Source: Thermoleophilia bacterium UBA6103
GTDB lineage: Bacteria; Actinomycetota; Thermoleophilia; UBA2241
DNA: 64,000 nucleotides
Reading direction: 5' to 3'
Assembly: GCA_002423545.1 (NCBI GenBank)
Contig: DIWP01000001.1
Span: 25,171-89,170 of the forward strand
The notes under the pieces were generated by a model that searched no databases, was not told the origin of the DNA, and saw nothing but the letters and a program-made list of their open reading frames with translations. A program made the translations under genes and the position numbers. Positions 19,126 through 26,735 of the stretch are shown in pieces (the stretch's first letter is position 1; the number at the start of each line of letters is the position of its first letter).

Positions 19126-19728
19126 ATGACGTCTAACATTCCAAGCACCGAAGACGGCGCTCCGCGTCTGCCGCGTACCGAACCACCCGAGCCCGGGCTG
19201 TTGCGGCGTGCCGCGGAGGGCGAGCGCGACGCGTGCCGACGTCTGGTGGAGACCCACCAGGATCTCGTCTTCGGGGTCGCCTGCAAGGTCCTCGGCGACC
19301 CCTGTGAGGCTGAGGACGCTGCCCAGGAGGCGTTCCTGCGGATGTTCCGGGCCTTGCCGGGCTATCGTGGGGAGTGTGCCTTCGCGACGTGGCTCTTCCG
19401 CATCGCCGCCAGCGCGGCGGTCGACCAGGGTCGGCGCCGACGACGGCTGAGCCGGGGGGTGGCCGATCCGACTGCCGCGCTGCCGCGTCTGGCCGCCGGT
19501 CCGGAGGTGGCCGTCGAGCAGACCGAGCGCTGCCGTGACGTGCTGCGGGCGATGGCGGAGCTGCGGCCGGCACTGCGCGGGCCGCTCGTCTTGCGGGAGG
19601 TGTACGGCTTGCCGTACGAGGAGATCGGCGTGCTTCTGGGTCGCCGGCTGGGAACGGTCAAGGCGGCCGTGCATCGTGGCCGCGCTGCCGTGGCAGCCGC
19701 GCTGGACGGCGGAGAGGTGAGTGGATGA
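19126..19728 (+). CDS. ECF-family RNA polymerase sigma factor (sigma-70 regions 2 and 4)
   Basis: Start MTSNIPSTEDG...; LLRRAAEGERDACRRLVETHQDLV (region 2.1/2.2) and YEEIGVLLGRRLGTVKAAVHRGR (region 4 HTH). Confidence 0.85.
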   Translation: MTSNIPSTEDGAPRLPRTEPPEPGLLRRAAEGERDACRRLVETHQDLVFGVACKVLGDPCEAEDAAQEAFLRMFRALPGYRGECAFATWLFRIAASAAVDQGRRRRRLSRGVADPTAALPRLAAGPEVAVEQTERCRDVLRAMAELRPALRGPLVLREVYGLPYEEIGVLLGRRLGTVKAAVHRGRAAVAAALDGGEVSG

Positions 19729-20051
19729 ACAGCGATGATCTGAGCAGCGTCCTCGACACTCTGGCGTTCGTCGAGGTCGAGACGCCCCAGGACTTCGCCG
19801 AGCGTGTCCTGCTGGCGCTCGATGCGCGCTCGCGGGAGCGACGGCGGACCCTGCGGCTCGCCGTCCTGAGCGTCAGGACGGACCTCTGGCGGCGCGGCCG
19901 GGAGGGGACGCAGCGGGCCGGTGAGTGGCTGGACGCGCGGGGCGGCTTCGGGCGCAGCGCGCTGGCGGGCTCGGCGATCGTGATCGGCGCCGTTGCCATC
20001 GGACTGGAGACCCGCCATCTGCGGCGCTCGAGGGAGGTGACGTCGGCATGA
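19725..20051 (+). CDS. putative anti-sigma factor (small, single C-terminal TM)
   Basis: ATGA overlap with the sigma stop; 108 aa; TM helix SALAGSAIVIGAVAIGL near the C-terminus. Its stop overlaps the fabZ start. Confidence 0.5.
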   Translation: MNSDDLSSVLDTLAFVEVETPQDFAERVLLALDARSRERRRTLRLAVLSVRTDLWRRGREGTQRAGEWLDARGGFGRSALAGSAIVIGAVAIGLETRHLRRSREVTSA

Positions 20052-20551
20052 GTGAGAGTATCGTGATGGACCGGACGGCGATCGAGGCCGTGCTGCCTCA
20101 CCGGGCGCCGTTCCTCCTGGTCGACGAGGTGCTTGAGCTGGAGCCCGGCATACGGTGCCGCGCGCGCCGCGCTCTGCGACCGGACGAGTTCTGGTTCGCC
20201 GGCCACTTCCCGGGCAATCCAGTCATGCCCGGAGTCCTGGTCGTGGAGGCTCTGGCCCAGACCGGGGCCATCGCGGCCCTGAGTCAGCCTGGCTCCCAGG
20301 ACCGGATCGTGCTGTTCGCCGGCATCGACAAGGTGCGGTTCAAGCGTGTGGTGCGCCCCGGCGACACGTTGGAGCTGGCCTGCGAGGTCACCGCGCTGCG
20401 CGCCGGTGTCGGTCGCGGCAACGTGAAGGCCACCGTCGACGGCGAGCTTGTCTGTCGCGGCGAGCTGATGTTCGCGCTGGCCGACGCCGAGGCCGCGGCA
20501 GCCGGTCAGCCGACCATGAGCACGGCTCCCGACCGCGAGCGTCCGGCGTGA
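20048..20551 (+). CDS. fabZ: 3-hydroxyacyl-ACP dehydratase FabZ
   Basis: LPHRAPFLLVDEV...GHFPGNPVMPGVL hot-dog motifs. ATG overlaps the anti-sigma stop. Confidence 0.85.
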   Translation: MSESIVMDRTAIEAVLPHRAPFLLVDEVLELEPGIRCRARRALRPDEFWFAGHFPGNPVMPGVLVVEALAQTGAIAALSQPGSQDRIVLFAGIDKVRFKRVVRPGDTLELACEVTALRAGVGRGNVKATVDGELVCRGELMFALADAEAAAAGQPTMSTAPDRERPA

Positions 20552-24759: not shown

Positions 24760-24814
24760 CAGTGAGCGCCTGCACGATGAGAGTCGGCCGACCTCTCGCC
24801 GGGACGGAGGCGTC

Positions 24815-25834
24815 GTGACGCCGGTGGAGGTCCAGATCGAGTCGCGTAACGGTGCGCAGGCGCCGTCCGGCTGGTGCTGTCCCGAATGCGGCGCATTGAC
24901 AGAGCGCGGGGAGTGGCGGGCCCGATCCTGCGTGTGCCCGGCGTGCGGTCACCACGCGCGGATCGGTGCCCGCGACCGCATCGCTCAGCTTGCCGACCCG
25001 GGCAGCTTCTCAGAGGAGTGGTCTCACCTCCGGACGCTCGATCCGCTGCAGTTCGTGGATCTCGAGGCCTACCCGGAGAGGACGCGCACGGCTCAGGCAG
25101 CCACCGGCCTCACCGAGGCCATCGTCGCCGGCCGGGCGCGGATCGAGAACGTGGCCTGCGTACTGGCCGTCATGGACTTCGGCTTCATGGGCGGCAGCAT
25201 GGGCAGCGTGGTGGGCGAGCGCTTCTTCCGCGCCGCCGAGGCGGCCGTCGCCGATCGAGTGCCGCTGGTGGCCGTCTGCAGCTCCGGCGGCGCCCGCATG
25301 CAGGAGGGTGTCCTGTCGCTCATGCAGATGGCCAAGACCACGCTGGCCGTCGACATGCTCAACGAGACCCGCACGCCGTACGTCGCGGTGCTGGTCGACC
25401 CCTGTACCGGCGGCGTCGTGGCAAGCTTCGCCACGCTGGCCGACATCTGCGTCGCCGAGCCGGGTGCGCGCCTCTACTTTTCGGGGCCGCGCGTGATCAA
25501 GGAGACAACGCGGGAAGAGCTGCCGGATGGCTTCAGCAGCGCCGAGCGCAACATGGCGCTCGGTCATCTCGATGCCGTGGTCCCGCGTGCCGAGCTGCGC
25601 GGTCGGCTTGCCTCGTACCTGCGACTGCTGAAGGGAGGTGCACGAGATGACGAAAGCGGACAAGTCGGAGACGCCTGGTGGGGAGCCACCGACGTCGGCC
25701 GGCGAGTCGTCGGCGAGACCAGACGTGCTGCCCTCCGCGCCCGACGCAGAGTCGGAGGCGCGCGCCGGCTGGTTGAAAAGGCGGCTCGACGAGCTCAAGA
25801 GATGGTCTCACCTCCCGGGGGTGAACCTCAGTGA
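24815..25834 (+). CDS. accD: acetyl-CoA carboxylase carboxyltransferase beta subunit AccD (3' end uncertain: no in-frame stop until 25834, 188 nt into accA)
   Basis: GTG start with GGAGG RBS. N-terminal zinc ribbon CPECG...CVCPACGHH; GGSMG motif. Homology-expected C-terminus is near ...RLASYLRLLKGG (~25640); GC3 collapses beyond that point. Confidence 0.75.
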   Translation: MTPVEVQIESRNGAQAPSGWCCPECGALTERGEWRARSCVCPACGHHARIGARDRIAQLADPGSFSEEWSHLRTLDPLQFVDLEAYPERTRTAQAATGLTEAIVAGRARIENVACVLAVMDFGFMGGSMGSVVGERFFRAAEAAVADRVPLVAVCSSGGARMQEGVLSLMQMAKTTLAVDMLNETRTPYVAVLVDPCTGGVVASFATLADICVAEPGARLYFSGPRVIKETTREELPDGFSSAERNMALGHLDAVVPRAELRGRLASYLRLLKGGARDDESGQVGDAWWGATDVGRRVVGETRRAALRARRRVGGARRLVEKAARRAQEMVSPPGGEPQ

Positions 25835-26735
25835 GGAGATCGATCGGCTGCAGTCGCGTCTCAGCGGGATGCGACACGAGGCGCGCCGACACGATGTCTG
25901 GGTCACCATCGAGATCAGTCGCCACAAGGATCGGCCGCGGACGCGGGACTACATCGGGTCTCTGATCAGCGGCTTCGAAGAGCTGCGCGGCGACCGACTG
26001 CGGTCCGACGATCCCGCGGTGGTTGGGGGCCTGGGCTGGTTCGAGAGCCGCGCCGTGGTGGTGGTGGGTCACCAGAAGGGGCGCACACTCAACGAGCAGA
26101 CCGCGGTCAACTGGGGCATGGCTCGTCCCGAGGGCTACCGCAAGGCGCAGCGGCTCTTTGCGCTGGCCGAGCGTCACCGGCTGCCGGTCCTGACCTTCGT
26201 CGACACGCCCGGCGCCTACCCCGGGGTGGCGGCCGAGGAGGGTGGGCAGGCGCGGGCGATCGCCGAGAGCATGCTCTCCATGGGTCGCCTCACCGTACCG
26301 GTGGTGGCCACCATCATCGGTGAGGGCGGCTCCGGCGGGGCGCTGGCGCTGGCGGTCGCCGACCGCGTCCTGATGCTCGAGAACGCGACCTACTCCGTCA
26401 TCTCGCCGGAGGGCTGCGCCGCCATCCTGTGGCGCGACGCCTCGTTCGCACCACAAGCCGCCGAAGCGCTTCGACCGACCGCGTCGAATCTGCTCGAGCT
26501 GGGCGTCATCGAGCGCGTCGTCCCGGAGCCCCGTGGCGGCGCCCACCACAGTCCGGCCGCCACGGCTGCTCGGCTCCGGACTGCCATCAGCGAGTCGCTG
26601 GCGGAGCTGGACGCCGTACCGCCGGCCGAGCGTCGCCGGCAGCGCCGCCTACGATTCCGTCAGCTCGGCGAGTGGAGTGAAGGAGCGGGGGCGTACGGGC
26701 TGAGCGCCGTGCCCATCATCGAGACGGAGCCGTAA
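25647..26735 (+). CDS. accA: acetyl-CoA carboxylase carboxyltransferase alpha subunit AccA
   Basis: ATG at 25647 preceded by GGGAGG (25633-25638). Motifs: FVDTPGAYPG, GEGGSGGALA, VISPEGCAAILW. Confidence 0.85.
   Translation: MTKADKSETPGGEPPTSAGESSARPDVLPSAPDAESEARAGWLKRRLDELKRWSHLPGVNLSEEIDRLQSRLSGMRHEARRHDVWVTIEISRHKDRPRTRDYIGSLISGFEELRGDRLRSDDPAVVGGLGWFESRAVVVVGHQKGRTLNEQTAVNWGMARPEGYRKAQRLFALAERHRLPVLTFVDTPGAYPGVAAEEGGQARAIAESMLSMGRLTVPVVATIIGEGGSGGALALAVADRVLMLENATYSVISPEGCAAILWRDASFAPQAAEALRPTASNLLELGVIERVVPEPRGGAHHSPAATAARLRTAISESLAELDAVPPAERRRQRRLRFRQLGEWSEGAGAYGLSAVPIIETEP

Follow-up and report, generated by a model that had tools for sequence, protein, structure and literature searches.

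We analyzed a 64,000-nt stretch of the genome of Thermoleophilia bacterium UBA6103 (contig DIWP01000001.1, positions 25,171 to 89,170; referred to below as the window), which carries on its plus strand, between 19.1 and 26.7 kb, a chain of nine genes: a gene for a sigma factor of the extracytoplasmic function (ECF) type, a gene for a 108-aa protein designated X, and the fatty acid synthesis genes fabZ, fabH, fabD, fabG, fabF, accD, and accA. Because the window is 70% G+C, genes were located first from third-position GC content and then assigned by family searches (Pfam, NCBIfam). The sigma open reading frame (ORF) occupies 19126–19728 and encodes 200 aa from an ATG at 19126 or 175 aa from a TTG at 19201. 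It is followed by X (19725–20051), a truncated anti-sigma homologue made up of helix 4 and a C-terminal hydrophobic anchor, without the zinc finger. The next five genes encode the 3-hydroxyacyl-acyl carrier protein (ACP) dehydratase FabZ (20048–20551; NF000582, 160 bits vs. a cutoff of 113), ketoacyl-ACP synthase III, FabH (20548–21612; NF006829, 412 vs. 249 bits), malonyl-CoA:ACP transacylase, FabD (21609–22538; TIGR00128, 283 vs. 261 bits), 3-oxoacyl-ACP reductase, FabG (22677–23432; TIGR01830, 300.5 vs. 297.75 bits), and ketoacyl-ACP synthase II, FabF (23509–24759; TIGR03150, 624 vs. 494 bits). The carboxyltransferase beta and alpha subunits complete the chain: AccD (24815–25834) matched TIGR00515 over residues 16–272 of 339 at 305 bits, just under the cutoff of 317, and AccA (25647–26735) matched NF004344 at 389 bits against a cutoff of 357. 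NCBIfam equivalog cutoffs for housekeeping enzymes were thus passed by five of the seven enzymes (FabZ, FabD, FabG, FabF, and AccA), FabH exceeded a subfamily cutoff, and AccD fell marginally short of its own. The type II fatty acid synthesis (FAS-II) set FabH, FabD, FabG, FabZ, and FabF is encoded as separate proteins, all five above their NCBIfam cutoffs, and the gene identities assigned along the chain in a preliminary description of this DNA were matched by the Pfam and NCBIfam models.

Read directly from the sequence, the sigma stop and X start share an ATGA (19725–19728), the X stop and fabZ start share another (20048–20051), and fabZ with fabH and fabH with fabD each share a GTGA (20548–20551 and 21609–21612, respectively). 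X additionally has its own Shine-Dalgarno sequence. Farther along, gaps of 138 nt (fabD–fabG), 76 nt (fabG–fabF), and 55 nt (fabF–accD) separate the genes; the ATGA and GTGA overlaps and the two larger gaps are exactly as first described. Fold z-scores in the intergenic gaps were close to 0, i.e., no better than shuffled sequence, and reached −1.6 after accA, and an Rfam search matched no family to the cluster. The interior of the chain contained neither a terminator nor a sigma-70 consensus promoter, a negative result that is weak for an actinobacterium, whose promoters the consensus scan captures poorly.

At the distal end of the chain, the most likely start of accA is ATG 25647, which has a strong ribosome-binding site (Shine-Dalgarno sequence AGGGAGG); this start creates a 188-nt out-of-frame overlap with the accD ORF (25647–25834). 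Public gene calls start accA at 25821, and the Pfam ACCA match already begins upstream of that position. The conserved domain of AccD ends near 25649, leaving a tail of approximately 61 unconserved codons lying over accA; within the overlap, codon bias is seen in the accA frame only, and GC content by codon position in the accD-frame tail resembles that of non-coding sequence. The AccD tail beyond the conserved domain looks like an overprinted extension. A similar 188-nt accD/accA overlap is present in L164 (from JGI gene calls; related loci are designated here by L numbers) and one occurs in L003 (from tblastn), but not in L001, L002, or L010.

The arrangement is rare and is confined to one sigma factor subfamily. 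In a FabZ scan of species-representative genomes, the best matches were four metagenome-assembled genomes labeled Thermoleophilia or ‘Actinomycetes’ (66–72% FabZ identity), and loci L001, L002, L003, and L010 each showed the order sigma, small gene, fabZ-fabH-fabD-fabG-fabF-accD-accA, with no acpP in any of them. A sigma gene lay upstream of fabZ in only 4 of the 80 FabZ loci of this genome set, the other 76 having none within 2 kb upstream, which bears out the earlier remark that the arrangement is unusual. A metagenome scan with the sigma factor returned 80 ECF loci, four of which (L081, L082, L083, and L086) encoded a sigma factor of at least 44% identity, followed in every case by fabZ-fabH; L081 is on the same contig as L010, and the other three are new. 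Among the 76 more distant ECF loci, fabZ was found downstream only in L130. By protein search, the sigma subfamily comprises 42 clusters at 53–95% identity, after which a clear score gap leads to matches of 44% identity or less. All five subfamily members looked up carried the operon, as did all eight metagenome-derived members examined; an outgroup sigma factor at 40% identity lacked it. Overall, 76 of 77 more distant ECF loci were without the arrangement.

Altogether, 12 distinct loci, all from Thermoleophilia-like genomes and metagenomes, have the arrangement (the organism of the window occurs in three public assemblies, and the count is of distinct loci). The stop codon of X, or of the anti-sigma gene at its position, overlaps the fabZ start in all 12 (eight of them read from the sequence itself, the other four from gene calls), and most of the eight aligned loci have a GGGAG Shine-Dalgarno sequence within the last codons of that gene. 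The upstream neighbors of the sigma gene differ between loci while the chain stays, so that the conserved unit is sigma-X-fab. In L130 (9887–11019), a different ECF sigma factor (38% identity) directly precedes fabZ-fabH-fabD, and a GTGA is common to the sigma stop and the fabZ start; this locus contains no anti-sigma gene and no TGCAAC...CGTCTAA motif (see below), and has a −10-like TAGAAT hexamer 9 nt upstream of the sigma ATG. It may represent an independent or older sigma-fabZ fusion. Locus L013, labeled Actinomycetota, is low-GC and shows the fabZ...accA order without a sigma gene and with birA and bioY upstream of fabZ, and is therefore uninformative on the origin of the sigma gene. In L166 (2063–4319), which is near-identical to L001, ~5 kb separate the sigma-fab operon from gidB-parA-parB, which puts the operon near the likely origin of replication.

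Alignment of the regions upstream of the chain revealed a single conserved block, present in all 12 loci and composed of TG(C/T)AAC(C/T)T, a spacer totaling 17 nt, and CGTCTAA. In the window this block corresponds to the ECF-class motif TGCAAC-N17-CGTCTAA at 19107–19136 on the plus strand, a candidate promoter that we term P2. Minor variants occur: L086 has GGCAAC, L164 a 16-nt spacer, and L165 CGCAAC...CGTCTG. With a weight matrix built from eight sites and a reporting threshold of 12 bits, the P2 site scored 32 bits, no other site in the 64-kb window exceeded 12 bits, and none of the seven relative loci scanned (3.9–20 kb each) contained a second site of this type. The motif is conserved as DNA and not as protein, since its codons read xCG TCT AA(C/T/A), the first specifying T, A, P, or S and the serine codon always being the rare TCT. 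It agrees with the Bacillus subtilis ECF consensus tgaAACnttt / CGTC (PMC5758882) and with the Streptomyces coelicolor sigmaE promoters of the form xGCAAC-N17-CGTCTx, e.g., TGCAACCCTGTCCCGAGTTCCGC-CGTCTG (PMC6767563). Inspection upstream of 19126, where the preliminary description had called for promoter mapping, thus located an ECF-class motif at the head of the chain, seen in the sequence only; P2 is a putative autoregulatory promoter upstream of the sigma factor's own operon, and it overlaps the in-frame ATG at 19126.

Three other readings of sites of this kind were considered and dropped. A second ECF-type site found with a looser pattern on the minus strand (28375–28350) fell below 12 bits by weight matrix, and in a minus-strand sigma-70 reading of the P2 motif the hexamers, judged by eye, did not fit TANNNT. 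A housekeeping −10 element, TAACTT, followed by a leaderless start 8 nt on does fit the L002-type loci and may hold for the sister subclade, but the window and L001 have CAACCT/CAACTT at 11 nt, and the DNA-level conservation of CGTCTAA is left unexplained.

Upstream of P2, the window contains GTAGAGT (19016–19022, plus strand), a candidate that we term P1, whose −10-like hexamer TAGAGT fits TANNNT. The form GTA(G/C)A(G/C)T was found 39–197 nt upstream of the P2 motif in 9 of 11 loci (a set that includes the near-identical pair L001 and L166), compared with ~0.04 occurrences per locus expected by chance. P1 is a candidate housekeeping −10 element and suggests basal expression that would be independent of the ECF sigma factor.

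The sigma factor matched only Pfam Sigma70_r2 (65.7 bits) and Sigma70_r4_2 (46.2 bits), without region 1.1 or region 3, in a protein of 175–200 aa, and it scored 92 bits against the NCBIfam ECF superfamily model TIGR02937 (cutoff of 43). All NCBIfam equivalogs for named ECF sigma factors (SigE, SigW, SigM, RpoE, ShbA, etc.) scored far under their cutoffs, the best being SigE (PRK09647) at 104 bits against a cutoff of 265; scores this far below the SigE and ShbA cutoffs indicate that the sigma factor is an orthologue of neither. The ORF itself stands as first described, but its start at 19126 is uncertain, as this ATG lacks a Shine-Dalgarno sequence and falls inside the spacer of the promoter-like motif. 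Public gene calls disagree on the start, one of them beginning at TTG 19201 (175 aa); GC content by codon position is flat over 19126–19200 and becomes coding-like from 19201, and L164 has, at the equivalent position, a GTG accompanied by a GGAG site. Against the shorter form, an in-frame ATG or GTG occurs in most loci one or two codons before the TCT AAC of the motif, and homologues conserve the peptide RLPR..P.EP that lies upstream of 19201. At the other end of the protein, tandem EQRQAE(G/S)R repeats extend the C terminus of the L086 sigma factor (1287–1555) ahead of the anti-sigma gene.

The product of the second gene, X, had no Pfam or NCBIfam match and contains neither zf-HC2 nor an H-x3-C-x2-C motif. 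Comparison of X with the zf-HC2 anti-sigma factors of relatives by hhalign nevertheless aligned residues 7–107 of X to residues 48–143 of 144, the C-terminal two thirds of these proteins (probability 95%, E 4e-8). At the same position, L002, L003, L010, L082, L083, and L086 encode proteins of 133–144 aa with an N-terminal C-x25-H-x3-C-x2-C; the two tested, from L002 and L003, matched Pfam zf-HC2 at 33 and 31 bits (cutoff of 22). All four zinc ligands (C3, H29, C33, and C36 in L002 numbering) are invariant in these six full-length homologues, and the zinc motif is followed by a P.GFAERV helix and then by a hydrophobic C-terminal segment and a basic tail. By these signatures the six are class I zinc-type anti-sigma factors. 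Class I anti-sigma domains bind sigma4 with helices 1–3, and helix 4 is the part that binds regions 2.1/2.2 of sigma2, probably preventing core binding (PMC7406223).

Short forms of 88–112 aa are encoded in the window and in L001, L164, L165, L168, and L169, and their alignment is restricted to the region that follows the zinc finger. The helix P.(D/G)FAERV..AL and hydrophobic segment of X have aligned counterparts in the zinc-containing anti-sigma (ZAS) homologues, and the gene overlaps the sigma stop. As judged from the alignment, the three-helix bundle that binds sigma4 is gone from X, whereas helix 4, which binds sigma2, and the anchor remain. Six genomes encode the short form as an intact ORF with a well conserved helix 4 (..FAERV..AL) and anchor, and it is therefore not simply decaying. 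Its hydrophobic segment is followed by only ~10–15 basic residues, which leaves no extracytoplasmic sensor domain. Calling this gene an anti-sigma factor was therefore half right: it is a homologue of one, directly following the sigma gene, but it is truncated, lacks the zinc-finger bundle, and has no family match of its own. The zinc ligands of RsrA (C11, H37, C41, and C44) have the same C-x25-H-x3-C-x2-C spacing as the full-length homologues, and the sister subclade may therefore sense thiol stress.

Several partner genes of the pathway are missing from the cluster, as the preliminary description had noted for ACP and enoyl reductase. Three ACP queries, run with phmmer --max on every six-frame ORF in the 64-kb window, gave no match at E < 3, and the 138-nt and 76-nt gaps cannot hold an ACP gene. 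As a positive control, the same queries used with tblastn found ACP in 32 of 41 other fab loci carrying fabG and fabF, so the search has power. An ACP gene was likewise absent from all examined relatives of the window's clade; a 73-aa ORF at 33193–33414, considered as an ACP candidate, had no match to any family. The ~50 window ORFs scanned with Pfam included no enoyl reductase (FabI, FabK, FabL, or FabV), nor did the gene calls of L161–L169, and the same ~50 ORFs included no accB or accC (biotin carboxyl carrier protein and biotin carboxylase), so that AccD and AccA are the only acetyl-CoA carboxylase (ACC) subunits present. None of these genes appeared among the gene calls for the 10 kb past the right end of the window either. 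Presumably the ACP, the enoyl reductase, and AccB/AccC come from elsewhere in the genome.

We interpret the chain, with slightly better than even confidence, as the lineage's principal FAS-II and ACC carboxyltransferase operon, presumably co-transcribed, whose first two genes encode a dedicated ECF sigma factor and the matching anti-sigma factor; the operon would have captured this pair or been taken over by it. The conservation of the arrangement suggests, short of proof, a direct connection between membrane lipid supply and this sigma factor. In the proposed mechanism, the sigma factor would transcribe the chain from P2, and P1, ~90 nt further upstream, would give basal expression, so that the presumably essential fab genes would not depend wholly on the ECF sigma factor. 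X would restrain the sigma factor through helix 4 (in the class I manner, by binding sigma domain 2 and blocking its binding to core RNA polymerase), with its C-terminal hydrophobic segment tethering it to the membrane. Release of the sigma factor, in response to a putative inducing signal, would then raise malonyl-CoA production, chain initiation, and elongation together. The earlier idea that envelope stress would directly drive malonyl-CoA supply is not supported as it stands: X has essentially no extracytoplasmic domain, and P1 points to basal expression apart from the ECF sigma factor. As the simplest way to reconcile the evidence on the sigma start, two transcript classes are envisaged: a P1 mRNA encoding the long sigma factor, and a P2 mRNA encoding the short sigma factor (from TTG 19201) or none, along with X and the enzymes.

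Several points weigh against this interpretation. The ECF-like motif overlaps or follows the in-frame sigma start codon in most loci, and a transcript from P2 would begin near 19143 and therefore could not encode a sigma factor starting at 19126. L002, L082, and others have no canonical internal sigma start. The peptide between the motif and region 2.1 is conserved with synonymous variation (RLPR..DPEP, or W..LPDPSP in the sister subclade), so the region seems to be translated from a longer transcript. In addition, X may be a weak or non-functional anti-sigma factor, because helices 1–2 and all zinc ligands have been lost, and an internal promoter may lie within the sigma or X coding sequence given the poor capture of actinobacterial promoters by the consensus scan.

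The awkward geometry of P2 relative to the sigma start would also suit a reading in which the sigma/anti-sigma and fab units are adjacent yet independent, the fab genes being driven by a housekeeping promoter hidden in sigma or X and the synteny being inherited. The flanks are partly syntenic too (an ATP-binding cassette (ABC) exporter pair upstream, an ABC-2 transporter downstream), and some of the gene order is simply inherited. We nevertheless regard independent units as unlikely, because the 4-nt X/fabZ overlap persists in all 12 loci at sigma identities of 44–95% while the upstream neighbors vary, and because the ECF-like motif occurs nowhere else in the 64 kb or in the seven relative loci. 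L130, in which another sigma factor is coupled straight to fabZ, further suggests that the sigma-fabZ link itself is what has been retained.

The loss of the sigma4-binding bundle and zinc site from X in the window's subclade raises a different question, namely whether the sigma factor is restrained at all. It could be a constitutive, housekeeping-like ECF factor, always active and serving as the routine factor for the fab operon, much as the Streptomyces ECF sigma factor ShbA governs the essential principal sigma gene hrdB (as outlined in PMC12019637), a precedent for an ECF sigma factor set over an essential housekeeping gene. The missing anti-sigma gene in L130 and the P2 motif as the only local target are also in keeping with this idea. 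It seems to us rather improbable: the short X is intact in six genomes with helix 4 and anchor, which argues for a retained function; in the sister subclade the anti-sigma factor still has its whole zinc finger, with invariant ligands; and the conserved housekeeping-type −10 element upstream would be unnecessary. A further proposal, to which we likewise give a low probability, makes the sigma/X pair a dedicated membrane-lipid homeostat within the only FAS-II operon of these bacteria. Here the short hydrophobic segment and basic tail of X would sense bilayer state at the cytoplasmic face of the membrane, and the RsrA-like C-H-C-C zinc site of the sister subclade would sense thiol/redox state instead. 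The compact double promoter would yield the two transcript classes, and since P2 messages would specify X and the enzymes but a shortened sigma factor or none, the positive feedback usual for ECF factors would be held in check.

Finally, although the lack of acpP, enoyl reductase, and accB/accC and the tendency of ECF sigma factors to control accessory and not core functions could point to a secondary cluster for a stress-specific lipid, with a housekeeping fab cluster that includes acpP elsewhere, we consider this very unlikely given the housekeeping-level scores of five of the seven enzymes (with FabH above its subfamily cutoff and AccD just under its own), the inclusion of the ACC carboxyltransferase, which belongs to primary metabolism, the expectation that a specialized cluster would normally bring its own carrier (the missing ACP fitting use of the housekeeping one), and the occurrence of the same fabZ...accA order, without a sigma gene and beside birA and bioY, in the unrelated low-GC L013.

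The genes flanking the chain vary among the loci. On the minus strand at 15224–18905, divergent from the sigma gene, are two ABC exporter genes with fused membrane and ATPase domains (heterodimer type), and the 220-nt intergenic region between the exporter and sigma units holds both promoter-like elements. The exporter pair is also upstream in L002, L164, L165, L168, and L169, as is at least the proximal gene in L010 and L082, which lie at contig ends; it is absent upstream in L001/L166, L003, and L083. Between accA and the ABC-2 transporter is a minus-strand gene (26991–28166) whose product has a signal peptide of the lipoprotein type (..AVSIGAC..) and gave a faint PsbP-like match; the gene is present in L164 and L165 and absent from L001/L166, L002, and L003, where the ABC-2 ATPase gene follows accA directly.

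Elsewhere in the window, a minus-strand cobalamin riboswitch at 7628–7820 (RF00174 in Rfam, 75.5 bits) is located upstream of a string of genes on the same strand (358–7496), including those for a 382-aa protein of unknown function, a DUF4430 protein, CbiQ, a double ABC ATPase, an energy-coupling factor transporter S component, and a prenyltransferase/terpene-cyclase-like protein; the string is probably a B12-regulated uptake operon. Genes for a radical SAM (S-adenosylmethionine)/SPASM protein, a glucose-methanol-choline (GMC)-type oxidoreductase, and a major facilitator superfamily (MFS) transporter stand in a row on the plus strand at 45896–51055; just upstream, on the opposite strand (41306–44403), are an FrhB/FdhB-like F420-type subunit and an amine-oxidase-like flavoprotein.

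A link between ECF sigma factors and fatty acid synthesis is not new in itself, with precedents in SigW, SigX, and sigmaE. In B. subtilis, SigW, an ECF sigma factor with a membrane-bound zinc-type anti-sigma factor (RsiW), directly alters transcription of the FAS-II condensing-enzyme genes fabHa/fabF as a membrane fluidity response (summarized in PMC3875570), through an AAC/CGT-type promoter (consensus in PMC5758882), and our system would resemble it in these respects. However, the B. subtilis promoter is located within fabHa, from which it drives fabF alone, and sigW-rsiW forms a separate operon elsewhere, whereas here the sigma and anti-sigma genes head a translationally coupled chain. Over-expression of Pseudomonas aeruginosa SigX raises accA, accB, accD, fabD, fabG, fabZ, and other FAS genes (PMC3875570), and its regulon has also been predicted computationally (PMC7776599); SigX is an orphan sigma factor acting on dispersed genes, in contrast to the complete core set found downstream of the sigma gene here. 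The P. aeruginosa operon PA14_21540–21560 contains a fabH paralogue (fabH3) together with an ECF sigma factor and an anti-sigma factor (PMC3875570), but there the fab-like paralogue comes first and that sigma factor was shown not to drive FAS genes.

The anti-sigma factors of the relatives resemble known ZAS proteins (RsrA, ChrR, RsiW, and RslA) in zinc motif, helix 4, hydrophobic segment, and the position of the gene right after the sigma gene, whereas X in the window matches only the part after the zinc finger and lacks an extracytoplasmic sensor domain. The P2 motif has the same xGCAAC-N17-CGTCTx form as the promoters of S. coelicolor sigmaE, whose chromatin immunoprecipitation (ChIP) target list includes accB-accE (PMC6767563); unlike in the window, the genes for ShbA and sigmaE are not in one operon with their targets. 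The main text of an ECF classification paper (PMC7826278) does not mention fatty acid genes. The literature searched described no conserved operon with a sigma/anti-sigma pair chained to core FAS-II and ACC carboxyltransferase genes, and no accompanying series of anti-sigma reduction. Stress promoters in or beside the 5′ coding region, giving isoforms with different N-termini, are a feature of Mycobacterium tuberculosis sigE and S. coelicolor sigR, and the placement of P1 upstream and P2 over the ATG is similar, though this is pure analogy.

If the interpretation is correct, the operon would be the most direct wiring yet seen of a stress-type sigma factor to bulk membrane lipid supply. Known ECF control of fatty acid synthesis, by SigW and SigX, acts at a distance, and a lineage-wide operon would differ from it in this respect. 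The locus would offer a compact, testable system, with one motif, one sigma factor, and one small anti-sigma factor, for how an essential pathway comes under an alternative sigma factor. The natural series of anti-sigma proteins, from full zinc-finger forms to helix 4 only to none, would show how much of the domain is needed, in a lineage of uncultured Thermoleophilia found in anaerobic consortia.

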